64,000 nt of DNA from Escherichia coli (GTDB taxonomy: Bacteria > Pseudomonadota > Gammaproteobacteria > Enterobacterales > Enterobacteriaceae), in the NCBI RefSeq assembly GCF_011045215.1, contig NZ_CP049201.1. The stretch is one strand, 5' to 3'. The translations under genes and the position numbers were made by a program. The notes under the pieces are model-generated. The model was not told where the DNA came from. It was given only the letters and a program-made list of their open reading frames with translations, and searched no databases. Shown one piece after another: positions 3,613-39,366 of the stretch (the stretch's first letter is position 1; each line of letters opens with the position of its first letter).

Positions 3613-4022
3613 CAGACTGGGTCCTGAATCAAAGAAGGGGAGAGTAACGACTCTTTCCAGGCATCGGCAATATTGCGCATTAATGCTTCCACTTCTTCGA
3701 CTGCGGAGACATCGTTGCGTAAATTGGCTTGCAGCAAGCGCCTGACCATATAGCTATAAAGAGCAATCAAGTTTTGGGTTAATTCGTCTTTGCTCTCTTC
3801 ATCAAGACTCACCCGCAGTCCGTTCTCAATGATGTTGATCGCTTTTGACAAAGAGACGCCTTTGCCTTGCTGATTGTTGTCCTGCATAAACAGGCGCGCT
3901 CTAACCAGTGCGCTCAGCACTCCATCAAATAGCATGGTGACCAGCTGCTGCTGGCTGGCGCTCATTACGGCGCTTTCGACGCCAATTTGTGCATAGGCCT
4001 GGGTGCCTTTTGCCGCGTACAT
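3612..4022 (-). CDS. fliS: flagellin-specific export chaperone FliS
   Basis: 136-aa ORF, position between fliD and fliT. Confidence 0.9.
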
Positions 4023-5615: not shown

Positions 5616-5642
5616 TAAAGGTTGTTTTACGACAGACGATAA
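5616..5642 (+). promoter_or_regulatory. sigma-28 (FliA) class 3 promoter of fliC
   Basis: TAAAGGTT (5616-5623) - 11 nt - GACGATAA (5635-5642), ~75 nt upstream of fliC ATG; matches the TAAAGTTT-N11-GCCGATAA consensus. Confidence 0.6.
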
Positions 5643-5718
5643 CAGGGTTGACGGCGATTGAGCCGACGGGTGGAAACCCAATACGTAATCAACGACTTGC
5701 AATATAGGATAACGAATC

Positions 5719-7536
5719 ATGGCACAAGTCATTAATACCAACAGCCTCTCGCTGATCACTCAAAATAATATCAACAAGAACCAGTCTGCGCTGTCGAGTT
5801 CTATCGAGCGTCTGTCTTCTGGCTTGCGTATTAACAGCGCGAAGGATGACGCAGCGGGTCAGGCGATTGCTAACCGTTTCACCTCTAACATTAAAGGCCT
5901 GACTCAGGCTGCACGTAACGCTAACGATGGTATCTCTCTGGCGCAGACCACTGAAGGCGCACTGTCTGAGATTAACAACAACTTACAACGTGTGCGTGAG
6001 TTGACTGTACAGGCGACCACCGGTACTAACTCTGATTCTGACCTGGCTTCTATTCAGGACGAAATCAAATCCCGTTTGTCTGAAATTGACCGCGTATCCG
6101 GGCAGACCCAGTTCAACGGCGTGAACGTATTGTCTAAAGATGGCTCCCTGAAAATTCAGGTTGGCGCAAATGATGGTCAGACTATCTCTATCGACCTGAA
6201 GAAAATTGACTCTGATACTCTGGGTTTGAATGGTTTCAACGTTAATGGTTCTGGTACCATTGCAAACAAAGCGGCCACAATCAGTGACTTGACTGCTCAG
6301 AAAGCCGTTGACAACGGTAATGGTACTTATAAAGTTACAACTAGCAACGCTGCACTTACTGCATCTCAGGCATTAAGTAAGCTGAGTGATGGCGATACTG
6401 TAGATATTGCAACCTATGCTGGTGGTACAAGTTCAACAGTTAGTTATAAATACGACGCAGATGCAGGTAACTTCAGTTATAACAATACTGCAAACAAAAC
6501 AAGTGCTGCGGCTGGAACTCTGGCAGATACTCTTCTCCCGGCAGCTGGCCAGACTAAAACCGGTACTTACAAGGCTGCTACTGGTGATGTTAACTTTAAT
6601 GTTGACGCAACTGGTAATCTGACAATTGGCGGACAGCAAGCCTACCTGACTACTGATGGTAACCTTACAACAAACAACTCCGGTGGTGCGGCTACTGCAA
6701 CTCTTAAAGAGCTGTTTACTCTTGCTGGCGATGGTAAATCTCTGGGGAACGGCGGTACTGCTACCGTTACTCTGGATAATACTACGTATAATTTCAAAGC
6801 TGCTGCGGACGTTACTGATGGTGCTGGTGTCATCGCTGCTGCTGGTGTAACTTATACAGCCACTGTTTCTAAAGATGTCATTCTGGCACAACTGCAATCT
6901 GCAAGTCAGGCAGCAGCAACCGCTACCGACGGTGATACTGTCGCAACGATCAACTATAAATCTGGTGTCATGATCGGTTCCGCTACCTTTACCAATGGTA
7001 AAGGTACTGCCGATGGTATGACTTCTGGTACAACTCCAGTCGTAGCTACAGGTGCTAAAGCTGTATATGTTGATGGCAACAATGAACTGACTTCCACTGC
7101 ATCTTACGATACGACTTACTCTGTCAACGCAGATACAGGCGCAGTAAAAGTGGTATCAGGTACTGGTACTGGTAAATTTGAAGCTGTTGCTGGTGCGGAT
7201 GCTTATGTAAGCAAAGATGGCAAATTAACGACAGAAACCACCAGTGCAGGCACTGCAACCAAAGATCCTTTGGCTGCCCTGGATGCTGCTATCAGCTCCA
7301 TCGACAAATTCCGTTCCTCCCTGGGTGCTATCCAGAACCGTCTGGATTCCGCAGTCACCAACCTGAACAACACCACTACTAACCTGTCTGAAGCGCAGTC
7401 CCGTATTCAGGACGCCGACTATGCGACCGAAGTGTCCAATATGTCGAAAGCGCAGATCATCCAGCAGGCCGGTAACTCCGTGTTGGCAAAAGCTAACCAG
7501 GTACCGCAGCAGGTTCTGTCTCTGCTGCAGGGTTAA
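5719..7536 (+). CDS. fliC: flagellin (605 aa; conserved N/C termini, long central variable domain)
   Basis: MAQVINTNSLSLITQNNINKNQSALSSSIERLSSGLRINSAKDDAAGQAIANRF... and C-terminal ...QVPQQVLSLLQG. Confidence 0.95.
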   Translation: MAQVINTNSLSLITQNNINKNQSALSSSIERLSSGLRINSAKDDAAGQAIANRFTSNIKGLTQAARNANDGISLAQTTEGALSEINNNLQRVRELTVQATTGTNSDSDLASIQDEIKSRLSEIDRVSGQTQFNGVNVLSKDGSLKIQVGANDGQTISIDLKKIDSDTLGLNGFNVNGSGTIANKAATISDLTAQKAVDNGNGTYKVTTSNAALTASQALSKLSDGDTVDIATYAGGTSSTVSYKYDADAGNFSYNNTANKTSAAAGTLADTLLPAAGQTKTGTYKAATGDVNFNVDATGNLTIGGQQAYLTTDGNLTTNNSGGAATATLKELFTLAGDGKSLGNGGTATVTLDNTTYNFKAAADVTDGAGVIAAAGVTYTATVSKDVILAQLQSASQAAATATDGDTVATINYKSGVMIGSATFTNGKGTADGMTSGTTPVVATGAKAVYVDGNNELTSTASYDTTYSVNADTGAVKVVSGTGTGKFEAVAGADAYVSKDGKLTTETTSAGTATKDPLAALDAAISSIDKFRSSLGAIQNRLDSAVTNLNNTTTNLSEAQSRIQDADYATEVSNMSKAQIIQQAGNSVLAKANQVPQQVLSLLQG

Positions 7537-7647
7537 TCGTTGTAACCTGATTAACTGAGACTGACGGCAACGCCAAATTGCCTGATGCGTTGCGCTTATC
7601 AGGCCTACAAGTTGAATTGCAATTTATTGAATTCGCACATTTTTGTA

Positions 7648-7678
<31 letters not shown>

Positions 7679-7710
7679 AACATGAATGGTAATTTGTCAG
7701 CAACGTGCTT

Positions 7711-7734
7711 CCCCGCCACCGGCGGGGTTTTTTC
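7711..7734 (+). terminator. rho-independent terminator after fliC, within a REP-containing intergenic region
   Basis: ccccgcc-acc-ggcgggg hairpin followed by T-run; preceded by REP-like palindromes (gcctgatgcg...cttatcaggcctac; tgtaggccggataaggcg...gcatccggca). Confidence 0.6.
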
Positions 7735-7855
7735 TGCCTGGAATTTACCGGTAACCCCCAAATAACCCCTCATTTCACCCACTAATCGTCCGATTAAAAA
7801 CCCTGCAGAAACGGATAATCATGCCGATAACTCATATAACGCAGGGCTGTTTATC

Positions 7856-8575
7856 GTGAATTCACTCTATACCGCTGAAGGTGTAATGGATAAACACTCG
7901 CTGTGGCAGCGTTATGTCCCGCTGGTGCGTCACGAAGCATTGCGCCTGCAGGTTCGACTGCCCGCGAGCGTGGAACTTGACGATCTGCTACAGGCGGGCG
8001 GCATTGGGTTACTTAATGCCGTCGAACGCTATGACGCCCTACAAGGAACGGCATTTACAACTTACGCAGTGCAGCGTATCCGTGGCGCTATGCTGGATGA
8101 ACTTCGCAGCCGTGACTGGGTGCCGCGCAGCGTGCGACGCAACGCGCGTGAAGTGGCACAGGCAATAGGGCAACTGGAGCAGGAACTTGGCCGCAACGCC
8201 ACGGAAACTGAGGTAGCGGAACGTTTAGGGATCGATATTGCCGATTATCGCCAAATGTTGCTCGACACCAATAACAGCCAGCTCTTCTCCTACGATGAGT
8301 GGCGCGAAGAGCACGGCGATAGCATCGAACTGGTTACTGATGATCATCAGCGAGAAAACCCGCTACAACAACTGCTGGACAGTAATCTGCGCCAGCGGGT
8401 GATGGAAGCTATCGAAACGTTGCCGGAGCGCGAAAAACTGGTATTAACCCTCTATTACCAGGAAGAGCTGAATCTCAAAGAGATTGGTGCAGTGCTGGAG
8501 GTCGGGGAATCGCGGGTCAGTCAGTTACACAGCCAGGCTATTAAACGGTTACGCACTAAACTGGGTAAGTTATAA
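7856..8575 (+). CDS. fliA: RNA polymerase sigma-28 factor FliA
   Basis: 239-aa ORF with GTG start; sigma-70 family regions; upstream of fliZ. Confidence 0.95.
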   Translation: MNSLYTAEGVMDKHSLWQRYVPLVRHEALRLQVRLPASVELDDLLQAGGIGLLNAVERYDALQGTAFTTYAVQRIRGAMLDELRSRDWVPRSVRRNAREVAQAIGQLEQELGRNATETEVAERLGIDIADYRQMLLDTNNSQLFSYDEWREEHGDSIELVTDDHQRENPLQQLLDSNLRQRVMEAIETLPEREKLVLTLYYQEELNLKEIGAVLEVGESRVSQLHSQAIKRLRTKLGKL

Positions 8576-8620
8576 CGTCAGTAAATGCCGCACTTTAACT
8601 TTGACTACCAGGAGTTCTTA

Positions 8621-9172
8621 ATGATGGTGCAGCACCTGAAAAGACGGCCATTAAGCCGCTATCTTAAAGACTTTAAACACAGCCAGACCCATTGCGCGCA
8701 TTGCCGTAAATTACTCGATCGCATTACCTTAGTTCGCGACGGCAAAATAGTGAATAAAATCGAGATTTCCCGCCTGGACACGCTGCTTGATGAAAATGGC
8801 TGGCAAACGGAACAAAAATCATGGGCGGCATTGTGCCGATTTTGCGGTGATTTACATTGCAAAACGCAGAGTGATTTTTTCGATATTATCGGCTTTAAGC
8901 AATTTCTTTTTGAGCAAACTGAAATGAGCCCAGGTACGGTGCGTGAATATGTCGTTCGTCTGCGCCGTTTGGGGAATCATCTACACGAGCAAAATATTTC
9001 CCTCGATCAGCTGCAGGACGGTTTCCTTGATGAAATCCTCGCCCCGTGGCTGCCCACCACCAGCACCAACAATTACCGCATCGCATTACGGAAGTATCAA
9101 CACTATCAGCGCCAAACCTGTACCGGACTTGTGCAGAAATCCTCCAGCCAGCCTGCTTCTGATATATATTAA
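8621..9172 (+). CDS. fliZ: flagellar regulator FliZ
   Basis: ORF 8585..9172; likely start at MMVQHLKRRPLSRYL (8621); immediately downstream of fliA. Confidence 0.85.
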   Translation: MMVQHLKRRPLSRYLKDFKHSQTHCAHCRKLLDRITLVRDGKIVNKIEISRLDTLLDENGWQTEQKSWAALCRFCGDLHCKTQSDFFDIIGFKQFLFEQTEMSPGTVREYVVRLRRLGNHLHEQNISLDQLQDGFLDEILAPWLPTTSTNNYRIALRKYQHYQRQTCTGLVQKSSSQPASDIY

Positions 9173-9259
9173 ATAAGAATAAGATGTAGCGGAGTTGTTT
9201 TTGTGTTTACAAACAATGGCTCTACACTGCAAACAGACATAACAACATTCGGGGTGAAT

Positions 9260-11151
<1,892 letters not shown>

Positions 11152-17527: not shown

Positions 17528-17603
<76 letters not shown>

Positions 17604-17656
17604 GTTTAAAAGGCATCGGCGTCAGCGGATGTCTGGCTGAAAGGCCTGAAGAATTT

Positions 17657-17730
17657 GGCGCGTTAACAAAGCGGTTATGTAGCGGATTGCAAATCCGTCT
17701 AGTCCGGTTCGACTCCGGAACGCGCCTCCA
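17657..17730 (+). tRNA. cysT: tRNA-Cys (anticodon GCA)
   Basis: GGCGCGTTAACAAAGCGGTTATGTAGCGGATTGCAAATCCGTCTAGTCCGGTTCGACTCCGGAACGCGCCTCCA. Confidence 0.95.
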
Positions 17731-17742
17731 CTTTCTTCCCGA

Positions 17743-17829
17743 GCCCGGATGGTGGAATCGGTAGACACAAGGGATTTAAAATCCCTCGGCGTTCGCGCTG
17801 TGCGGGTTCAAGTCCCGCTCCGGGTACCA
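17743..17829 (+). tRNA. leuZ: tRNA-Leu (anticodon TAA)
   Basis: GCCCGGATGGTGGAATCGGTAGACACAAGGGATTTAAAATCCC...GGGTTCAAGTCCCGCTCCGGGTACCA; long variable arm typical of tRNA-Leu; its 3' 55 nt are duplicated at 39473. Confidence 0.95.
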
Positions 17830-19435: not shown

Positions 19436-19678
19436 AGCAACCTCCCTTTAGGTGGTGCTATTCTAAATTTCATCAATGCAGATTCCAACTCCTTCCCACT
19501 TTAAGCGAAGGATGGTGATAAAGTCAGAAGATGTTAGATGAAATCTAAACGGGCGATAAGTTTTCCAATATTTGAATAACAACGTGGCAGGATTTTTGTT
19601 TATCAATTATCTTACACTTTTAAGTGTAATAAATTTGTTAGTGATGACAATATTGTGAGAGGAGATTATCAATTGAAG

Positions 19679-21077
19679 ATGGCAAAAAATAACAATGATA
19701 AAATGCGGGCAAAGTATAGGCCGTTCATAAATATATGGGAACATCTTCCTTCTGAGTTCAATGAACTCATCAAGACGTTAATGGTGCTGATACGGCAAGG
19801 GGAAAATGTGGGAGCTCAGCAAAGGGAGCTTGATTCCATCGAAAACTTCAAACACCTGTTAAGTGGATGGAAGCGGGCGCAAAGGATCATAGCTGATGAA
19901 CTCATTATCAGGCTTTCTCAAATCAAGGATCTGGAGTTAGAAAAGAATTGTGCCCATTCAAAAAAGGACTATGAAACAAAGAAGAAGTGTATACGCAATA
20001 TTGAAAGGACTAGACTAGAAATTAGGATTTTACGTAGGTGCATTGATTCAATTGTATGGGCGATATTCCGCAATGAACACTCGTCTATAAGACGTTTACC
20101 TATAAATAGAAATACTGACAATCTGACAATATTTAATATACATGATTCAATGGTGGTAGCAGATGAAATCAATGCTGATCCGATGGCTATAGCTGTTATC
20201 ACTGATATTACTACGTTTGTACATACTGGTGATTTACTTGCGTTAATACCTCAGCAAGGCATAACTTTAATTGAAATAAAAAGTGGTAAGAAAAATATAG
20301 AGTTTTCAAAGGCGGCTATGTTCTCAGTGCAAAGTAAATGTCTTCATTTTGATGAGATTTATAGAAAAGACCTTGATAAAAATGACTTGAAACACTATGA
20401 CAGAGCTAAGCGTCAACTTAAAAGAGCTCAAAATGTGATAGATGTCATTGAGACTGGTAAGGGATTTGATAACTTTTTTCAGTCTCAAGTAACAATTCAT
20501 GACAGAGATTTTTGTCCCGATTTTTATACAGATAAGATTATTGAGCTTTGGTATGAGATATATAACGGTAAAACTTGGGCGATTACTGACATTAATGATT
20601 GTTTATTCCTTGGGGCATATATTAATTCTAATATGGGTTTTTGCGGTTTTAATGGATGGATGGAGGTATCTAGAATATCGGGGAGAGTGGTTTAATATTC
20701 TTGATAGCTTTTCAGATGCTTTATCACGTCCATTTTTTAGTTTGAACCTACCTGATAAATTGCTTCTGGATATCATTAATGGCAATCTAATTGTTGTGCT
20801 GTGTTTCGATCATCGTCGTTTCGTAGAAAGAGCAAATAAAAAATACCCCGGGATTTATGAGTTATTGGATTTTCCATCTCCGAAGATTAATCCTATGAGT
20901 ATGCTTTCCATCAATGGGAAGGGGGTAGTTTCTAGTGTTGATGGACAGAGTGTTTTTATTGGAAATGGTTACGAAACTCGGATTATTTTTGATCAGCAAT
21001 ATCCAGATAGTCTGATTAAGTGGTCATACCATATGAGTGATCTCAAAAAAATATTGATAAAAAAAAGCGTAAAATGA
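19679..21077 (+). pseudogene. ~470-aa cargo protein with PD-(D/E)xK-like nuclease motif, interrupted by a frameshift near 20660-20690
   Basis: ORFs 19655..20695 and 20499..21077 overlap in different frames; protein-like sequence continues across frames around the direct repeat ggatggatgg; motif HTGDLLALIPQQGITLIEIKSGK (D ... E-x-K); AT-rich; upstream palindrome ttacacttt/taagtgtaa (19612..19629). Confidence 0.5.
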
Positions 21078-21272
21078 AAAAGGAAACGCAAAGAAAAATA
21101 AAAGAGAAAAGAAAACGTAGCAGAAAACAATGCTTAAACTAACACATCTAATGCTTTAATTTGCTTTACTGTTACAATGTCCGCTTACTGGTACAGGGCG
21201 GACTGCCATATTAGATTTGGTTCTATCTCGTAAGAGTGGCCGTTCAGGTCTGCACTAATACATCTGAATGGT

Positions 21273-29484: not shown

Positions 29485-30084
29485 TTATGCTTGTTTACTC
29501 CTTGATTCCACTGGGGAAGCAGGCCACTCAATATCCGGTGCTCTTGATGTATCAACACGGTTCAGCAGCACTCGATACTTCTTCCATGCCACCAGTAACG
29601 ATGTTTCTTCCTCTGTTGCAATATTCAAATCTACGGCATCTTGAAGTGGCGAAATATGCTCACTGGCTACCTGCATGAGGCTGTTTTTTGTTTCTTCCGC
29701 CTCCCGTATCCGGAACACTTTTTCTGCTTCTGCATCTTTCACCCACGTTGTGCCGTTCCACTTCTGAAACTCCCCTTCCGGGGATAACCAGGTGACATTT
29801 TCCGGTAATGGACCGAGTTCAGAAATAAATAACGCGCCCCCTGATGCCACGTCATAAACCGTTTTACCACGATGATCTTCAACGAGATGCCAGGACGTCT
29901 TATCACTGTTGAAAATAGCCACGAAGCCAGCTGGAATATCTGGCGGAGAAATATCAGTACTATTTGCAGGTAGACCTGTATGAGGTGGAATGTATGCATC
30001 ACCTTCACCAATAAATTCATTGGTTCCGACCAGCAGATTATAAATTTTTATGGTTCGTGGTTGTTCACTCATTCTGAATGCCAT
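29485..30084 (-). CDS. tail fibre assembly chaperone (Tfa / P2 G-like)
   Basis: 199-aa ORF immediately downstream of the tail-fibre fragment; Tfa-like C-terminus (...[22 protein letters not shown]). Confidence 0.8.
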
Positions 30085-31259
30085 TATGCAAGCCTCACAA
30101 TATAGTTAAATGCGATGTTTTTTACGGTGTTTTCCGCGTTGCCATAAGCGGCAATGGTAATGGTGTGTGTGTGCGAACCAATAGCGAGCGTATGTGTATG
30201 CGCACCTATTGCTACTGTGTGAGTATGAGCTCCTGCGCTTAATACGCGATTACTTGCTGTCTTGCTTGTGTTAGTTGCATGCATTCCACCACCGGTACCG
30301 GGAGTTTCTGCGTATGCTGAAGTATTGTTGTAAGCAAAGTTGTGTGTATGTGCTCCGGTGTTATTTGTGGATTTAGTTCCGTAATCAAACGACGATGTGG
30401 TTTTCGTCCCCAAATCCGTACTGGATGCGCTGGCGCTGTGGGTGTGCGATTTAATGCCGTCCTGTTCCTGAGACAATACGGCTCGACCACTGGCTGGTTT
30501 GCCCTTAATCGTCCAGCCACGCATATCAGGGATCACGCCTGACGGATAAGCGGCTGCAAGTTTCGGGTATGCAGATTTGTCAAAAGTCTGCCCCTGCATC
30601 AGGGCATAACCAGACGGAACGGTATCTGATGGCCACGGGATTGGTGCGCCAGGCGGATAAAACTGCTCTGATGGCGTATAGAGTGAATAAACTGTACCGT
30701 CCGTTAACCCTTCCGGCTTATTAGCAGAATATGCTGGTGACGTATGAATCGTCACGCTGGCATTACTGGTATAATCCCATTGAATATTTACACCAGTCGC
30801 ATAATTTCCGATTGCAACGTAAATATCGTAAGTATCACCAGATGTATTGACCCAGGCAAAATTTGTAAACCCTGTCGATGTGCGCTGCCATAAAGCACCA
30901 GTAATCCCCTTCGGATTACCATTACCTGCACGCAAAACAAGTTCAGATATACCTGCCTGTTGAGGTGAACCGACGTTATATCCAGCCCCACCAATCAACG
31001 TAATTGAAACAACAGAACTCGCCTGCGGCATGGTTACCGTTGCTAATTTGAACCAACCAGCACCACCGCTAAATGACATAGTTGTTGAGTTAAGCGTACC
31101 AATATCTTTCGGTGTCAGTGTTATATCCGCTGAAAGCGCCTTACCATTCACCTTACGGGCAGAAGGTACGGTCTGGCAAGAGCCGCCCGGCAAACGTCCT
31201 GGCATCAGTCTGCGCTTTACTTTAAGCGCAATGTATTGCTCGGTTGCTACATCCCGCAC
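30084..31259 (-). pseudogene. tail fibre protein, C-terminal portion only (N-terminus deleted)
   Basis: 391-aa ORF with HTHT/His-x-His repeats ([24 protein letters not shown]) typical of fibre tips; reading frame runs into the portal fragment junction at ~31236-31259. Confidence 0.7.
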
Positions 31260-32560: not shown

Positions 32561-33091
32561 ATGAAGAAAGATTCATATCCTTATTTGATTTGCATGACTG
32601 TTTCAGTGCTAGGGATTATTTTCCTCTTTTACTGGTGGAGGGCAGATATCTACAGGATTACATATCTTAATTCGCGTATATCCAATTATTACATCTTGTG
32701 TAGTATGGGTATGTCCTTTTTCTTCTCCTTGTTTCTGGTGAAGAGGGGGGTAGTGAAGCAAAGTGGCTGGAAAGGACTGTCGGAATACCTGAAGGTTTAT
32801 GCTGGCTCTTGCATTCTTACAGGGATATTCCTGATTATTCCTCTTATGATGGTGACTTATTTTTTACCAGGAGTAACATCATCATATGTTGCACCGTATG
32901 AGTATACATCTGGTAGTTCAAGAAGCTGTTCCGGAGCGTTTGTTGATGATCCCGAACTGCATAAAAATATTCTTATTTGCTATCCGTATGGTAACTATGA
33001 ATATGACAATATTATCTATGTTGAAAAGAAAACTAATGCATTGGGCGTTGTTGTGACGTATGCACAGACTGCACGAGACGATGCTGAATAA
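32561..33091 (+). CDS. integral membrane protein of unknown function (hotspot cargo)
   Basis: 176 aa, about 3-4 hydrophobic helices then a soluble tail; AT-rich; preceded by TGTGCA-type repeats at 32455..32494. Confidence 0.55.
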   Translation: MKKDSYPYLICMTVSVLGIIFLFYWWRADIYRITYLNSRISNYYILCSMGMSFFFSLFLVKRGVVKQSGWKGLSEYLKVYAGSCILTGIFLIIPLMMVTYFLPGVTSSYVAPYEYTSGSSRSCSGAFVDDPELHKNILICYPYGNYEYDNIIYVEKKTNALGVVVTYAQTARDDAE

Positions 33092-33282: not shown

Positions 33283-33564
33283 CTAGTTCAGCGATTCGGT
33301 TGTTTTTGGTTTCCAGCCAATCAAGTAGCGCCAATACTTCAGGATCCCGACATCCAACACTGTTACGCGTGATTTTTCATAATGTTCGTCGGCAAGAGTT
33401 CGGCCAATTTTGAAATCTCCATCATCACCATAACCGGAGCAGGCATAAACAACCTGTGCTCCAGATATTCGCTGAATTGACATTTCCTCGCCGCAAATAG
33501 GGCATTTCGGTACTGGCACAGGTGAATAACGTTCACGTAATGCCTGATAGTTGATTTCGCTCAT
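33283..33564 (-). CDS. small zinc-ribbon protein (possibly frameshifted)
   Basis: MSEINYQALRERYSPVPVPKCPICGEEM...YACSGYGDD; an alternative frame downstream (to ~33182) reads as a coherent helical tail (DPEVLALLDWLETKNNRIAELEKIATDYALKFQKAQDALKY). Confidence 0.45.
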   Translation of the reverse strand: MSEINYQALRERYSPVPVPKCPICGEEMSIQRISGAQVVYACSGYGDDGDFKIGRTLADEHYEKSRVTVLDVGILKYWRYLIGWKPKTTESLN

Positions 33565-33627
33565 TAAGTCGTTCTCCTTGTTTATGTTCTGAGGTGGAGA
33601 GCAGGGCGAACTCGCCCTGATGTTGTG

Positions 33628-33929
33628 TTATTCAGGAAATAACGCCCGGATATTTCCGGCCATCTGACTGGTTATCTGTGCGGTTGATACTGGCTGTGAT
33701 GCGGGGCGTTCTGTCCTGGTTTGTGTCACTGATAACGCTTCATCATCAGCCCATGCAGCTAGTCGGTAAGCCTCTGCCGGATTCATTTTCAGAAGTGCCA
33801 GCCCGGCCAGAAAAGCCACACGTTGGCCGCTTTTGCGGGCTTCTGGTGTAAGGCTGTCCAGCCAGGCGCATGCTTCGCCTTCGTTCTTGACGGCGGCGGG
33901 CTTCAGATAGAAACTTATCCGTCTGGTTG
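33628..33929 (-). CDS. ParR/StbB-like partition adaptor protein
   Basis: From MTTPTRRISFYLKPAA...LDSLTPEARKSGQRVAFLAGLALL...NIRALFPE; resembles plasmid R1 ParR (RRTIAFKLNP...LDSIPQGERSRLNRAALTAGLAL...LRSLFPKE) from memory; lies directly downstream of the parM-like gene. Confidence 0.65.
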
Positions 33930-33943
33930 GTGTCGTCATTGGT

Positions 33944-34893
33944 TTACTCCTTGTCCATTGCGTACAGCCCATTAACCAGAGCAAACTGTGGCACCCCGTC
34001 CGCGATGAAAGTCGCATTAACTCCGCAGGCTTCGCGGATAGCGGGTGCCACAATCTCCGCCCCGCCACCGACAACCATCACCCGCCCGTAACCCGAAAAA
34101 ACCGCCAGCGCGCGGATCACGCGTTGTTTCAGTGTTTCTTCCTTTTCACGAATAACCGCCATCAGGCTGGCGTAATGCGCGTCATTGTGGATGTGTTGGC
34201 GCAACCAGGCTTCATCATGGCGATGTTCGATAATGGTATTGGCGATGTGGTGACTGGTACGCATACCGTTAGCGGCCATCACCGACAGCACGGCACCGGC
34301 CATCAGGGAGACGCCTACGTGTGGATCGCAAAACACCTGGCTGATACCTGCCAGTTGCCCCTGAACCTTTGCCACATCCAGCGTGGTTCCGCCTAAATCC
34401 ACAATCAGCAGGGATTCAAACGGACTCATGTCAGCCAGTGCTTTAAAGCCAGCCGGAATGGATTCAGGCATAACCCGCACGTTACGGATAGTGAATGCTT
34501 CGCCGTTCTGGTACTCCACCGGGCGCATAACGTTCGCTTTTTTGCGGTTGATGTTGGCCATGTCCGGCTGTGCGTTTGTGTCGAAATACTCGCTCAGTGG
34601 CAGGGTGACAACCACATCCACCTCCTGTGGCGTGATGCCTGATTTGACCAGCGTGTGATGAATGGCGATTACATTCACATCGCTGTACTGGTATTGCGTG
34701 TCGGTCGTCTGGACAAAGCGATCGCTGACCGGATCAAAACCATAGCGCACGCCATCAAGCATGTAGTTCGCGGGCTGCATGCCACCGAACGGCGCAGATC
34801 ATTCCGACTTGAAGCTGTTCGGGCTGATGGCGTTGCGGCGTTCGCCATTCTCAGTCCATGCCAGCTTGATGTTGGTGGAGCCGTCGTCGATAC
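33944..34893 (-). pseudogene. ParM/StbA-like actin-type ATPase with in-frame TGA nonsense codon
   Basis: MKICIDDGSTNIKLAWTENGERRNAISPNSFKSE-TGA(34799-34801)-SAPFGGMQPANY...; remainder matches ParM (VMPESIPAGF, IVDLGGTTLD, VMVVGGGAE); the stop replaces the Trp of R1 ParM KREWAVSFG. Confidence 0.75.
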
Positions 34894-34932
34894 AAATTTT
34901 CATGTCGCTTTTCCTTATGTTGATTAATTAAT

Positions 34933-35044
34933 CGTTTACGGGATTCTGAAATCCCGTTTTTGCCTGTTTTGTGTGCGCTTCATATATCGCGGCGCGTTTT
35001 TTGCTCATTTACGGGATTTGTGAATCCCGTTTCTGTCTGTTTTT
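34933..35044. repeat. two ~36-bp direct repeats, each with an internal dyad (acgggatt..aatcccgt), upstream of the parM-like gene
   Basis: tttacgggattctgaaatcccgtttttgcctgtttt (34933..34968) and tttacgggatttgtgaatcccgtttctgtctgtttt (35008..35044); candidate parC-like centromere/operator, or a remnant of a replication origin near the end of gene A. Confidence 0.5.
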
Positions 35045-36533
35045 TGTTTCCACTGGTCAGGCCACCCCGCAGCAGGTCTGCTTTGCGGCGGGCACGTTCA
35101 GTGGTTTCACTGATTCTCTGTGCGTGCTCTGCGTCGCGGATGGCGCGCAGCATGTCAGAAAGCACGGTAACGGGGGTTTTCATGGTGTTCTGGTCCTGCT
35201 GAAGTGTGGATGCCAGACGTGCGGCGGCTTCGAGGTCTGATGCCCCCAGCTGTTCCAGATAGCTGGCGACCGGGTTATGGCGGATCTCCGTGCTGCTTAC
35301 GCCGTGATTACGGCTCAGGCGCTGCCAGAGCTGCGTGATTCGGCTGTCCGGGCGGGTATCCGGTTTGCGTACAATTTCAAATCCCTGCGGTGCAATGATG
35401 CTGCCGTCAACGTACAGGCTGCCGCCCCGTAACAGGTGCTGCATCTGCTGTTCACCGATATGCATGCCGAGAGATTCGGCAGATTCCCGCCATTCTTTAG
35501 CGAGTAATTCGTGGTTATCAGGCAAAGGCCGCTGCTGTTTGCGGCTCTGTGTCCAGCTCTGCATTTCATCACTGCTGTTTTTTGCCTGTTTGTCACGCAG
35601 CGAACGCATCAGCGCCCGGCGTTCGTGCCGTTTCAGTGAGCGCACCCATTCATCCACATCAACGCCGTCAGGAAGCTGCGGCCACGGTGCTGGCCGTTCT
35701 TCCGGCTGTTCTGTCCCGTTGTTGTCCGTTTCCTGTACACGGGGACAGTTATTGCCACGAGTCCAAGGGGCGGCAGGGCCGCTCTGAAGGTCAAAACCAT
35801 TTTCGCGGGAGCTGTCTTCCGCTTCCGGTTTGCGTCTTACCAGCTTCCAGTTATCCGGATGCGTGCATACGCGGGAAGACTCCCCGATGAGCGGCGACCA
35901 GATCCCGTAAATCTGTACACTCTGCTCACCGTAATCGTTCAGTTCATCTGCGAGGTCGTAGGCGGTGCGAATCAGGTAGTCTTTGCGTGGAACAAGCACG
36001 CCACCCTGTTTTTCAATGTAGGTGGCAAAACACCCGGCATCAGCGGCAGCGAGTACCGCATCCATTGCGTCATCCTTCAGCCGTTGCGGGCCTTCCGGGT
36101 TGCGTGCCATCTGGCTGGCAAGGCGGCGCAGTTCACGCCACACCTGACGGGAGGGGATACCAAAGAACTGGAACTGGCGGACCCGGTGAAGGCGCGCCCA
36201 GCCGATGGCGCGTTCCACGCTCTCGGCCATTGATTTTCCGGTTTCGTGGTCAACGCGTGGCTTGCCCGTTTTCGGGTCGATGCCATCCACGGCGCGGCTG
36301 TCCAGGTTCTTTCCGATGTAGGTGGCGATGTAGCTGGTTGGCGTGCCTTTTGAGCCGTCGACGTACTCCGCCTTAAAACGCGGAGTTATGTCATCGCCCA
36401 GCTCGTGGCGGTCTTCCTGAATGGCAATATCGCAGACGTGGGACACGATGGTTTCAATCTCGTCCGGATGTGCAAAGACCATCATATGCCAGTGCACAGT
36501 GCCGTCATGGTGAGGCTCCAGCGGTGTATTCAC
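34980..36533 (-). pseudogene. replication initiation endonuclease gpA-like, N-terminally truncated
   Basis: 517-aa ORF begins within the region matching P2 A (LEPHHDGTVHWHMMVF vs P2 VEPHHDGTPHWHMMVF as recalled); the N-terminal part of a full-length A protein plus cox/B equivalents are missing. Confidence 0.7.
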
Positions 36534-36686: not shown

Positions 36687-36836
36687 CTACTGTGAAATAA
36701 AGGGTGAGCGTTGTTCTTTAGCTGCCATTTCATCAATGACGGCTCGCTCTTCGAGGGACAGCCGAAGTGCCAGTCTTGGACCTGTGGCGGTGTTACGCGG
36801 AATGCGTGATCTGGTATCGTGAAGAACTTGTTTCAT
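36687..36836 (-). CDS. small ribbon-helix-helix-like ORF (49 aa), uncertain
   Basis: Manual translation MKQVLHDTRSRIPRNTATGPRLALRLSLEERAVIDEMAAKEQRSPFISQ: beta-strand/helix pattern of RHH proteins; lies between A fragment and the divergent repressor gene. Confidence 0.3.
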   Translation of the reverse strand: MKQVLHDTRSRIPRNTATGPRLALRLSLEERAVIDEMAAKEQRSPFISQ

Positions 36837-36911: not shown

Positions 36912-37316
36912 ATGAAAAATGATATTGGTCAGCGGTTGCGTGAGGAAAGGGAAAGATTGGGGCTTAGTCAAGTTGCTATGAGCGACATTGGTGGAGTCAA
37001 AAAGCTAACTCAGCTTAGATATGAGAAAGGAGATAGCTTTCCTGATGCTGCGTATTTGGCAGCGCTGTCTCGTTTTGGCCTTGATGTTCAGTATGTTGTG
37101 TTGGGAATTCACTCACCTGAAACTTATAACGATGATGAGCAGGAGTTGATTACTCGCTTTCGAGCAGCTTCGTTAGATGTAAAAAACGCGGTGATCGGGG
37201 CTTTAAAAGGTGCGGGCAGTGAAAAGGAAACTCAGCCATCAGGGCGTGAGTTAAATATTTCTGGTGGTAATAACCGTATCGCTGGTCGTGACTATAACGA
37301 AACTAAGGGTAGGTGA
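36912..37316 (+). CDS. XRE-family HTH repressor (P2 C-like immunity repressor) with C-terminal tail
   Basis: IGQRLREERERLGLSQVAMSDIGGVKKLTQLRYEKGDSFPDAAYLAALSRFGLD HTH; divergent from A, co-directional with int as for P2 C; C-terminal ...SGGNNRIAGRDYNE motif repeated in the next protein. Confidence 0.7.
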   Translation: MKNDIGQRLREERERLGLSQVAMSDIGGVKKLTQLRYEKGDSFPDAAYLAALSRFGLDVQYVVLGIHSPETYNDDEQELITRFRAASLDVKNAVIGALKGAGSEKETQPSGRELNISGGNNRIAGRDYNETKGR

Positions 37317-37331
37317 TAGTAGGGAGGTGAC

Positions 37332-37982
37332 ATGGCCGTCAACTCAAACGGTTCAAACAATCGCGTTGCTGGGCGTGATTTTCACGAAAAGAATATTCAG
37401 ATAGAGCGATATGATGGTTCTCATACCGTCAATATCGCAATCCCTTCGAATAATGATGATGACGCTCGCCCTTTGCTTAAGGCACAGCGTAAGGAGCTAA
37501 ATAGCTTGGTTGCTGCTATTGCAGAAGCTAGCAATACTGAAGCGTTTATTATTTGGCAAAAAGTACATGCGGAGATTGGTGTAGCTGGTATTGATGATAT
37601 GACAATAAATCAATATAAAACAGCGGAGAGTTTTCTGCATGCAATGCTTGAGCGATGTAAAGATCATGATGCCTGTAAGACTCTTGTAAGTTTATTACTA
37701 CGTAACAGTGAAGACTGTGGACTTCGACAAAAACTTCTGCGGTATTGCCATATCAATTTCGGTACAGGACGTTTAAACGATCTTACTCGTTCTCAGTTAC
37801 AGTCTGCATTGTCGTGGTTAGAGCAACAATCGGTATCAAGCCACTCAGAGAATTCGACCTTACCAGAAGTTCGCCTTCGTGCTTCAGAATTAATCCGATT
37901 TTATCCAAAAGAAATAATATTCTTTATCTGCGTAGGGGTTTTGGTAGGCGGAGCCATTTCTAGGATGTTTTTTAATTTGTAA
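37332..37982 (+). CDS. tail-anchored membrane protein of unknown function (lysogeny-operon cargo)
   Basis: 216 aa; N-terminal SNGSNNRVAGRDFHE repeat shared with the upstream repressor; single C-terminal TM helix (IIFFICVGVLVGGAISRMFF); strong SD (GGAGGTGA) after three consecutive in-frame stops. Confidence 0.6.
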   Translation: MAVNSNGSNNRVAGRDFHEKNIQIERYDGSHTVNIAIPSNNDDDARPLLKAQRKELNSLVAAIAEASNTEAFIIWQKVHAEIGVAGIDDMTINQYKTAESFLHAMLERCKDHDACKTLVSLLLRNSEDCGLRQKLLRYCHINFGTGRLNDLTRSQLQSALSWLEQQSVSSHSENSTLPEVRLRASELIRFYPKEIIFFICVGVLVGGAISRMFFNL

Positions 37983-38011
37983 TCTTACTTGAGCTAAATT
38001 GAGGCAATGAC

Positions 38012-38359
38012 ATGAAAGTAAAAAAGGTTCAACTATTAGTTGCTTTTTTATCTATGTTTTCTTTTTCCGCCGTCGCAATGCCTTTTAAAACTATTGAACG
38101 TGAGAGTTTCAATGGAGTATGGCCATTTAATACAGATGAGGTTCAATTGCAGTGTCTTGATGGTAATCCTTATGTGATGAATTTTGACGATAATAAGTTA
38201 TATGCGCTTACAGGTTTGGCTCGAATAAAAGGTAAAACATTTGGTGCGTTACCGTTAGATAACAATAATCCATTTTGGCTAGATAATGATGCCGCCCCAG
38301 GGTTAAAAAAGAATCTGGGGGACGTCACTAAGGCTGCATTTGATTTATGTGATAAGTAA
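38012..38359 (+). CDS. YebY-like (DUF2511) secreted/periplasmic protein
   Basis: 115 aa; signal peptide MKVKKVQLLVAFLSMFSFSAVA; ...WPFNTDEVQLQC... and C-terminal ...LC resemble E. coli YebY as recalled. Confidence 0.55.
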   Translation: MKVKKVQLLVAFLSMFSFSAVAMPFKTIERESFNGVWPFNTDEVQLQCLDGNPYVMNFDDNKLYALTGLARIKGKTFGALPLDNNNPFWLDNDAAPGLKKNLGDVTKAAFDLCDK

Positions 38360-38364
38360 CAAAA

Positions 38365-39366
38365 ATGTCGGTTCGTAAAACTCCATCAGGTAAATGGCTT
38401 TGCGAATGTTATCCCTACGGAGCATCGGGAAAACGCATTCGTAAACAGTTTGCGACAAAAAGTGAGGCGCTCTCTTATGAGCGCCGTTTAATGAATAGTA
38501 GAGTTGGAGACGAGTTTCAAGATGGTTCTGGTCCTCGTCTTTCTGAGTTGATTGCTCGTTGGTTTGAGATGTACGGAAAAACCTTGTCCTCTGGTGCAGA
38601 GCGCAAAGTCAAACTTGAGGCGATTTGTTCTAGGCTGGGAGATCCATTTGCTTCTCAGTTTGACAAAAATATGTTTGCTACTTATCGGGAAAGAAGGCTA
38701 TCAGGAGAATGGAATCCCAAGGGGAAGAAAAAACTTAGTGAAGCAACCGTTAATCGCGAGCAGTCATATCTACATGCTGTTTTTGCCGAACTGAAGCGCC
38801 TTGGGGAGTGGTCTGGTGAAAACCCCCTGACTGGAATTCGCAAGTTTCGTGAGGAAGAAAAGGAGCTGGCGTTTCTGTATGTAGATGAGATTGAACGCCT
38901 TTTGATTGCGTGTGATGATTCACGGAATAAAGATTTGGGGGTTGTTGTCCGTATTGGGCTTGCGACTGGTGCTCGGTGGAGTGAAGCAGAAGGATTAAAG
39001 CAATCTCAAGTACTGCCCGGTCGAATCACATTTGTTAAAACTAAAGGAAAGAAGAACCGCACTGTACCGATTTCACCTCAATTGCAGGCTATGCTTCCTA
39101 AAAAACGAGGAGCGCTATTTTCACCATGTTATGAGGCTTTTGACGCTGCAATTAAGAGAGCGAAGATAGAGCTCCCTGATGGGCAATTAACTCATGTGCT
39201 ACGTCACACGTTTGCTAGTCATTTTATGATGCGGGGCGGAAATATTCTTGTGTTGCAAAAAATACTGGGGCATAGCGATATAAAAATGACTATGCGTTAT
39301 GCGCATTTTGCTCCGGGTCATTTAGAGGCTGCTGTTGAATTAAACCCTTTTGACAATAGAGGGTAA
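38365..39366 (+). CDS. int: phage tyrosine integrase
   Basis: 333 aa; C-terminal catalytic region HVLRHTFASHFMMRGGNILVLQKILGHSDIKMTMRYAHF (R...HxxR...Y); ~110 bp from attR. Confidence 0.9.
   Translation: MSVRKTPSGKWLCECYPYGASGKRIRKQFATKSEALSYERRLMNSRVGDEFQDGSGPRLSELIARWFEMYGKTLSSGAERKVKLEAICSRLGDPFASQFDKNMFATYRERRLSGEWNPKGKKKLSEATVNREQSYLHAVFAELKRLGEWSGENPLTGIRKFREEEKELAFLYVDEIERLLIACDDSRNKDLGVVVRIGLATGARWSEAEGLKQSQVLPGRITFVKTKGKKNRTVPISPQLQAMLPKKRGALFSPCYEAFDAAIKRAKIELPDGQLTHVLRHTFASHFMMRGGNILVLQKILGHSDIKMTMRYAHFAPGHLEAAVELNPFDNRG

Follow-up and report, generated by a model that had tools for sequence, protein, structure and literature searches.

Organization and identity of the cassette

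The window, by which we mean the whole 64,000-nucleotide stretch of Escherichia coli DNA analyzed here, carries a parM pseudogene and an intact parR gene inside the remnant of a P2-like prophage. Read along the minus strand, the order is the 3' part of replication gene A, two 43-nt repeats, a Shine-Dalgarno-like AAGGA, parM, parR and a GC-rich hairpin. The features are positioned as follows:

34980..36523, minus strand: replication endonuclease gene A, 3' part, approximately 514 of 946 codons
35005..35047, minus strand: parC-like repeat 1, 43 nt, with the dyad ACGGGATT-caca-AATCCCGT at 35011-35030
34932..34974, minus strand: parC-like repeat 2, 43 nt, with the dyad ACGGGATT-tcag-AATCCCGT at 34938-34957
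34903..33944, minus strand: parM pseudogene, 319 codons, actin-like ATPase, ATG at 34903
33939..33628, minus strand: parR, 103 aa, intact, Plasmid_stab_B/StbB-type adaptor
33602..33619, no strand: GC-rich hairpin directly after parR, at the right edge of the conserved cassette

The parR gene starts 4 nt past the parM stop, and alignments to relatives mostly stop at approximately 33600, next to the hairpin.

With its premature stop codon read as tryptophan, the parM frame encodes a protein that aligns with ParM of plasmid R1 (PDB 1mwk) over residues 2-316 (E=2.8e-92) and that matches the Pfam families StbA_N (2e-81) and ParM_N (1e-67) (PF06406, PF21523). The DDGSTNIK, MPESIPAG, DLGGTTLD and GGGAE motifs are conserved between this frame and R1 ParM. 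The motifs of the actin-fold ATPases (phosphate-1, connect, phosphate-2 and adenosine) are thus all present in the reading frame, though the frame is interrupted at codon 35, and those downstream of the interruption are unbroken.

The ParR protein matches Pfam Plasmid_stab_B (PF10784) at 2e-24, and a PDB sequence search with ParR returned no match. Its sequence is identical to that of five IMG/VR relatives. The N-terminal RRISFYLKP strand does not vary among the relatives, whose first 65 residues fall into two main variants, whereas residues 66-92, the linker, are hypervariable. The tail is conserved as (K/G)NI(R/Q)xxFPE, and its counterpart in the ParR of an IncL/M plasmid reads RKNVQHLFPD. 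ParR is predicted to be an adaptor with a ribbon-helix-helix fold. A small gene directly after parM, a conserved N-terminus, a variable linker and a C-terminal tail of the ParM-binding type make up the layout that would be expected for a working adaptor.

The initial annotation of this DNA had described ParM and ParR homologues in the parMR arrangement of R1, and had proposed formal HMM alignment as a check. Such alignment gave the StbA_N, ParM_N and Plasmid_stab_B matches above, and the coordinates and the homology to 1mwk and Pfam families agree with that description. PGAP calls the two genes 'plasmid segregation protein ParM' and 'plasmid partitioning/stability family protein', always following a 'replication endonuclease', and PHROGs places both ParM and ParR in the category 'partition protein'. 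An NCBIfam search with ParM, ParR and their neighbours gave no useful match.

Over the cassette, which is found at positions 8699-10157 of phage P88, the window is 97.6% identical to P88, and it is syntenic with the related loci L001, L002 and L003, which places the prophage in the P88-like group. The partition genes of P88 were noted by Pfeifer et al. 2021. The original P88 paper makes no mention of partition genes, and the paper on Citrobacter phage phiSM merely lists the product as a 'fitness' factor. The parMR module of P88-like phages is therefore already known and named. Taking the identification together with the inactivation of parM and the mechanism proposed below, we are highly confident that the locus is a plasmid-type parC-parM-parR segregation cassette (R1-type, type II ParMRC) that is standard in P88-like phages (genus Xuanwuvirus, P2 family).

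Candidate ParR sites upstream of parM

The two 43-nt direct repeats are 81% identical and lie 73 bp apart, and each contains a perfect 8+4+8 dyad of 20 bp, ACGGGATT-N4-AATCCCGT. Allowing up to 2 mismatches, this pattern occurs at two places only in the 64 kb, against 0.02 expected by chance. The initial annotation had reported two direct repeats of approximately 36 bp, each with a dyad, ahead of parM; the repeats and their dyads are real, but the repeats are 43 nt long and the upstream one is inside the A frame. Repeat 1 is not intergenic, as it falls in the final ~22 codons of the truncated A frame, whose stop is at 34980-34982. Repeat 2, in the spacer between A and parM, covers part of what is presumed to be the -35 region of a weak promoter. 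A strict sigma-70 scan found no consensus promoter in the cassette. A conserved ATTAAT box at 34932-34927, invariant in an alignment of three lineages, may mark a weak parMR promoter.

The dyads are conserved in relatives. In E. coli, Plesiomonas and Hafnia parM is preceded by two GGG-N10-CCC dyads that are spaced by 72-73 bp and, counted from the parM ATG, are located at about -125 to -131 and -52 to -59, while the DNA between the dyads and the ATTAAT box has diverged among the three. In Plesiomonas and Hafnia just the GGG and the CCC, 10 nt apart, are kept and the inner arms no longer pair. Because the inner arms of the Plesiomonas copy are unpaired, the conserved unit appears to be two half-sites approximately one helical turn apart rather than a hairpin, and this half-site pattern would suit a dimer of ribbon-helix-helix dimers better than a terminator.

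In one relative (L063) the 3' part of A has been replaced and homology to the window restarts exactly at 35044, the start of repeat 1, so repeat 1 belongs to the par cassette rather than to A. In another (L027) one dyad alone is left after recombination between the repeats. The prophages of Serratia and Enterobacter are laid out differently, and in them GGGAAC and GTTCCC, separated by approximately 60 bp, sit inside a larger inverted repeat. The plasmid relatives have tandem 10-bp iterons.

The rarity of the dyads and their conservation in three lineages support them as the best candidates for the centromere or operator bound by ParR, in keeping with the parC-like role that the initial annotation had suggested for the repeats. 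The parC site of R1 has ten iterons, arranged as two blocks of five 11-bp direct iterons. As two dyads are far fewer than these ten, or than the tandem 10-bp iterons of the IncL/M plasmid, the phage site could be an operator only.

We consider it unlikely that the dyads serve some purpose other than ParR binding, either as hairpins or terminators or as sites for gpA or a host factor. Each dyad was flagged as terminator-like, having a T-rich run behind it on the plus strand, and the upstream dyad is inside the A coding sequence. In the sense orientation, however, neither dyad is followed by a U-run, and a stable hairpin is not what Plesiomonas and Hafnia have conserved, since they keep only the GGG and CCC. 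The spacing of the dyads and their distance to the parM start are conserved as well, and in L063 the repeat has stayed with parMR despite the replacement of the A 3' part.

Distribution and selection in relatives

Of 5426 complete E. coli genomes, 1307 contain the 1461-bp cassette, with identities of 90-99%. It is also present in P88 and other members of Xuanwuvirus (Peduoviridae) and in phiSM, and both P88 and phiSM can be induced. In a set of 50,697 phage records, a ParM of the R1-like type occurs only in the P88-like group and in the phage-plasmid D6 (47.5% identity). The initial annotation had suggested looking for intact homologues in P2-like phages; these are present in P88, in phiSM and at 79 of 79 IMG/VR loci, the latter being those relatives with a locatable parM start.

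Over 65 distinct parM alleles the mean dN/dS is 0.057, and the segregating variants comprise 156 synonymous versus 52 non-synonymous changes. Given such strong purifying selection in intact relatives, the parMR family is not decaying. This runs against the earlier suggestion that the module is the decaying relic of a plasmid-prophage ancestor, as do the open reading frames at all 79 IMG/VR loci, the inducible carriers and the synteny in four further genera described below. By these sequence comparisons the module is conserved and selected in P88-like phages, and the window copy alone has decayed, together with the rest of its prophage.

Synteny in other genera and probable exchange with plasmids

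Outside Escherichia, the genera with the closest ParMs are Hafnia, Plesiomonas, Serratia and Enterobacter, with identities of 54-62%. In all four genera parMR is located in P2-like prophages with the order gpA, parM, parR, a few variable genes, portal and terminase. The variable genes downstream of parR include HicAB (Serratia), a KAP NTPase (Enterobacter) and an ead-like fragment. The parMR genes are the constant pair adjoining gpA in five lineages, and the variable hotspot starts after parR.

The Serratia and Enterobacter ParMs are 58-60% identical to the ParM of the IncL/M plasmid versus 54-58% to that of the E. coli phages. A phage-specific ParM clade was considered and rejected, as these proteins are equally close to the plasmid ParM. 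Since the phage ParMs form no clean clade, exchange with plasmids has probably taken place more than once.

The same synteny bears on whether parMR in the P2-like group is hotspot cargo, acting for example to exclude plasmids or phages with related ParMRC systems (incompatibility) or in some other form of defence. The genes do lie between A and Q, where P2 has tin and old, both of them non-essential; genes of the stabilization or defence type (HicAB, KAP NTPase) adjoin them in relatives; and nearly all copies are integrated, where partition is unneeded. Yet the position and composition of the pair next to gpA are constant over five genera as the downstream genes vary, and this disfavours a reading as cargo. 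PADLOC found no defence-system match for the parMR pair or the neighbouring ORFs, and every part of a ParMRC system is still there, down to its own candidate cis sites and the tail through which ParR would bind ParM. The initial annotation had offered ParM/ParR-like variable cargo of the A-Q hotspot as an alternative; it fits these observations poorly, and we regard it as improbable.

About equally improbable is that the P88-like phages are true phage-plasmids in which parMR maintains a stable plasmid prophage. The passage in Pfeifer et al. counts in favour of this reading, and one complete P88-like genome of 34.5 kb was submitted as a circular plasmid from an E. coli strain, so the free circular form can be abundant. 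That record still encodes an integrase, however, and may represent an excised or induced form, and in the complete E. coli genomes 1452 of 1454 places with the cassette are chromosomal. With so nearly all copies in the chromosome, any episomal phase would be transient.

Inactivation of parM in the window

The parM frame is open over 319 codons save for a TGA at 34801..34799, codon 35, which aligns with the tryptophan of KREWAVSFG in R1 ParM. The next in-frame ATG after the TGA is at 34780, and a product started there would have 278 aa and would be without the DDGSTNIK phosphate-1 loop. Codon 35 is TGG in an O103-type E. coli prophage (L001) and in phage P88, and all 79 IMG/VR relatives have TGG at this codon and an uninterrupted 319-codon parM. 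The tryptophan is invariant across 8 ParMs from phages and plasmids, and the more distant ParMs (Hafnia, Plesiomonas, Serratia and Enterobacter prophages, D6, the IncL/M plasmid and R1) all have it at this position. A 61-mer containing the TGA had 0 exact matches among 1394 places in complete E. coli genomes, the exact 38-mer with the TGA was absent from IMG/VR, GTDB species representatives and JGI metagenomes, and an exact-sequence look-up of the 278-aa truncated ParM found nothing.

Compared with the 79 relatives, the window parM has just three private changes, namely W35*, A84T and one synonymous change, so few that the inactivation must be recent. The initial annotation had attributed the loss of parM to a single in-frame TGA in place of a conserved tryptophan, which is confirmed by comparison with the O103-type prophage, P88 and the 79 IMG/VR loci; it had also proposed checking the codon in related strains, and every relative examined has TGG. 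An intact, translatable parM is thus found in relatives, with TGG at codon 35, and not in the window, with TGA. Judged from its sequence, parM in the window is a pseudogene that owes its inactivation to a single private TGG-to-TGA stop, and no working system is expected here.

Programmed readthrough or recoding of the TGA was considered and rejected, because no relative has TGA at codon 35.

Low-level readthrough of UGA by tRNA-Trp would give back the wild-type residue. Given the critical concentration of ParM, such readthrough would probably yield too little protein for filaments.

Disrupted parM alleles occur elsewhere, as frameshifted or fused products (P0009, P0034 and P0011) and as a parM match split into four pieces in phage 503458, from which it follows that loss of parM in single prophages is recurrent.

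The prophage remnant

The remnant lies between a tRNA Gly-Cys-Leu cluster (17528-17829) and yecA, and extends from just past the tRNA genes to an integrase at 38365-39366. The 'A fragment' of the initial annotation is an apt term, for the first ~432 codons of A are deleted along with the early operon upstream. In terms of the intact O103-type prophage at the same yecA-side site, the missing early-region blocks are its positions 5624-8991 and 9180-10537 (cox-side early genes and the A 5' part). The portal gene is cut at window position 31165 and fused to tail-fibre sequence, and the terminase, capsid, lysis and baseplate genes are missing. The prophage is a deletion remnant, unable to replicate or excise productively, and parM could therefore be lost without cost. 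With several large deletions in the same prophage, the nonsense change in parM is one lesion among several.

None of the complete E. coli genomes in the collection shares the deletion junctions, and the nearest chromosomal flank among the collections is only ~99% identical, so that these collections hold no close relative of the source genome. IS-mediated decay, which would have pointed to a Shigella-like genome, was rejected as an explanation, as the window has no long repeats indicating IS elements.

It is very improbable that the TGA is a sequencing or assembly error and the cassette intact as in its relatives: the TGA is a single-base change, unique among the ~1400 E. coli copies and three further collections, in an ORF that is otherwise nearly unchanged, but the 5.4-kb stretch with the cassette aligns to a relative gap-free and so does not suggest poor assembly, the three large real deletions in the surrounding prophage imply that selection on parM had already lapsed, the private changes (one nonsense, one missense, one synonymous) are what neutral drift would give, and other disrupted parM alleles are known, as listed above. 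The initial annotation had allowed for a sequencing error in a pair widely conserved as core P2 genes; the wide conservation is borne out for the P88-like group, the error is not. The correct annotation of the locus is 'parM, pseudogene; parR; P88-like prophage remnant'. For the source genome this is of little importance, being one more pseudogene in a decaying prophage.

Comparison with characterized systems

The cassette shares with R1 parMRC (stbAB) the order of cis site, parM and parR, and its repeats too are found ahead of parM, in overlap with the putative promoter. The ParM frame aligns with R1 ParM over its full length at 46-50% identity and has all the ATPase motifs, and the ParRs belong to the same Pfam family. 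The systems differ in that R1 parMRC is plasmid-borne whereas the cassette belongs to an integrating P2-family phage, with parM a pseudogene in the window, and in that the phage cis site consists of two 20-bp dyads 73 bp apart and has no iteron blocks such as those of R1 parC. The nearest counterparts are the pairs in P88 and other Xuanwuvirus phages and those annotated by PGAP in E. coli prophages, which are 94-99% identical in DNA sequence and likewise follow the replication endonuclease gene. Unlike these, the window copy has W35*, and its prophage is without the early operon, the A 5' part and most structural genes. The StbA-type genes of phage-plasmid D6 include the ParM homologue mentioned above, but D6, a plasmid prophage, is P1-like, and several iterons of the TCTCA type are found upstream of its genes.

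Two more distant systems show that normally chromosomal elements can use such machines. The srpMRC system of the SXT/R391 ICEs stabilizes the excised circular form of the element and has four repeats, which SrpR binds pairwise (Carraro et al. 2015, PMC4489591). Like the phage cassette, it is an actin-type partition system with few cis repeats on a normally chromosomal element; SrpM and SrpR are distant from ParM and ParR, however, and the element is conjugative and no phage. In the Corynebacterium prophage CGP3, AlpAC connects the excised phage DNA with actin-like filaments, and efficient replication depends on it (Donovan et al. 2015, PMC4446434). Here too an integrated prophage encodes an actin-like protein and a DNA-binding adaptor that binds upstream of the operon, but AlpC is a distant actin-like protein, the host and phage type are different, and the role demonstrated is efficient lytic replication and not partition.

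Proposed mechanism and biological role

For intact phages we propose the following mechanism. ParR, as dimers of dimers, would bind both dyads, which at 73 bp (approximately 7 helical turns) apart would present the bound ParR on the same face of the helix. The promoter-proximal (downstream) dyad overlaps the putative parMR promoter, so that ParR bound there would act as the repressor of its own operon. ParM filaments would be captured by the conserved C-terminal tail of ParR and would push or place the circular phage genomes during the extrachromosomal phase, either after infection and before integration or after excision. In the window ParM cannot be made and the replicon is defective, and the most that may go on there is binding of ParR to its own candidate sites.

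Roughly estimated, partition or retention of a transient episome is the leading candidate for the role of the family, held tentatively and at somewhat less than even probability. Organization of lytic replication is possible but doubtful. What is left goes to stable plasmid lysogeny or to exclusion of the incompatibility type. For the broader proposal, that ParMRC is a selected part of the life cycle of P2-family phages in several genera of the Enterobacterales, with a minimal two-dyad centromere through which the circular genome is moved or partitioned, and that it is no plasmid relic, we see the chances as evenly balanced.

At the level of the family the finding poses a puzzle, in that strong purifying selection maintains a segregation machine of the R1 actin type in an integrating phage that is present in approximately one quarter of complete E. 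coli genomes. For binding and deletion work the conserved pair of dyads offers a concrete target, and P88 and phiSM, being inducible, are phages in which such work could be done. If the proposal is true, P2-family phages with ParMRC would be integrating viruses with active DNA segregation, and the window copy would be a recently killed example.

Organization of the prophage remnant

Between a tRNA Gly-Cys-Leu cluster and yecA lies a P88-like prophage remnant of ~21 kb. It differs from intact relatives by deletion junctions at ~36701-36706 and 36519-36523, and its tail-fibre sequence directly abuts the portal gene, which is cut at 31165. The deletion junctions of the remnant were found in no complete E. 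coli genome.

Features of the remnant and its chromosomal flanks (window coordinates)
7601-7642 (-), sRNA ES036, chromosomal flank
17528-39366, P88-like prophage remnant
19460-21272, ~1.8-kb segment between the ogr-side and tail-gene blocks
19655-20695, largest ORF of that segment, 346 aa, GTG start
29543-29741 (-), IS009 RNA, within the tail-fibre region of the prophage
32561-33091 (+), small gene, 176-aa predicted membrane protein (phrog_1416, a family without functional annotation)
33283-33564 (-), small gene, 93-aa fragment of an ead/Ea22-like gene
36912-38359 (+), genes adjoining the integrase, products of 134, 216 and 115 aa
57751-57828 (-), sRNA C0465, chromosomal flank

The three RNAs are Rfam matches, all of which exceed the gathering score. 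The ~1.8-kb segment is missing from the complete P88-like genome L003, and its largest ORF had no match in Pfam, NCBIfam or PADLOC; the segment may be uncharacterised cargo or non-coding. On the integrase side, the 134-aa product is HTH repressor-like, the 216-aa product weakly resembles the flagellar regulator Flk (6e-15, far under the curated cut-off), and the 115-aa product carries the annotation DUF2511 in relatives. These genes may be expressed in the lysogen.

The interval following parR

Within the A-Q interval, the variable part is the stretch that holds the two small genes, from parR to the portal fragment. The predicted membrane protein encoded there had no match in PADLOC or NCBIfam. 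P2-like prophages of two other genera carry these genes directly behind parR:

L086 (Serratia), 7450-8084, HicAB toxin-antitoxin pair
L087 (Enterobacter), 7411-8757, KAP-family NTPase

Their gene content is consistent with a cargo or defence hotspot that would start directly after parR.

The parMR cassette in related phages

Over its whole length, record NZ_CP148288.1 (L003) represents one complete P88-like phage genome of 34.5 kb, which encodes an integrase, parMR and the full set of morphogenesis genes; the deposited entry describes it as a circular 'plasmid' from E. coli strain Z1323PEC0009. Two other relatives differ from the window at or next to the parC-like repeats. In L027 (about 3930-3970) a single dyad is left and the 73 bp separating the two repeats are gone, and in L063 (3457-3924) the gene A 3' end differs, and a separate 155-codon ORF continues across repeat 1, the exact point at which homology to the window restarts.

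Among the IMG/VR loci L004-L083, phages that share 95-99% identity elsewhere have two main variants of the first 65 ParR residues and very different linkers (residues 66-92). The RRISFYLKP strand and the NIxxxFPE tail are constant. Such a mosaic suggests recombination or diversifying selection acting on the linker.

Disrupted parM alleles were also found in public data, in protein clusters P0009, P0034 and P0011 and in phage 503458 (NC_049341.1, 25872-26815). Among them are alleles with a frameshifted tail, one fused to unrelated sequence and one that matches in four pieces. These alleles show that parM loss recurs in individual prophages.
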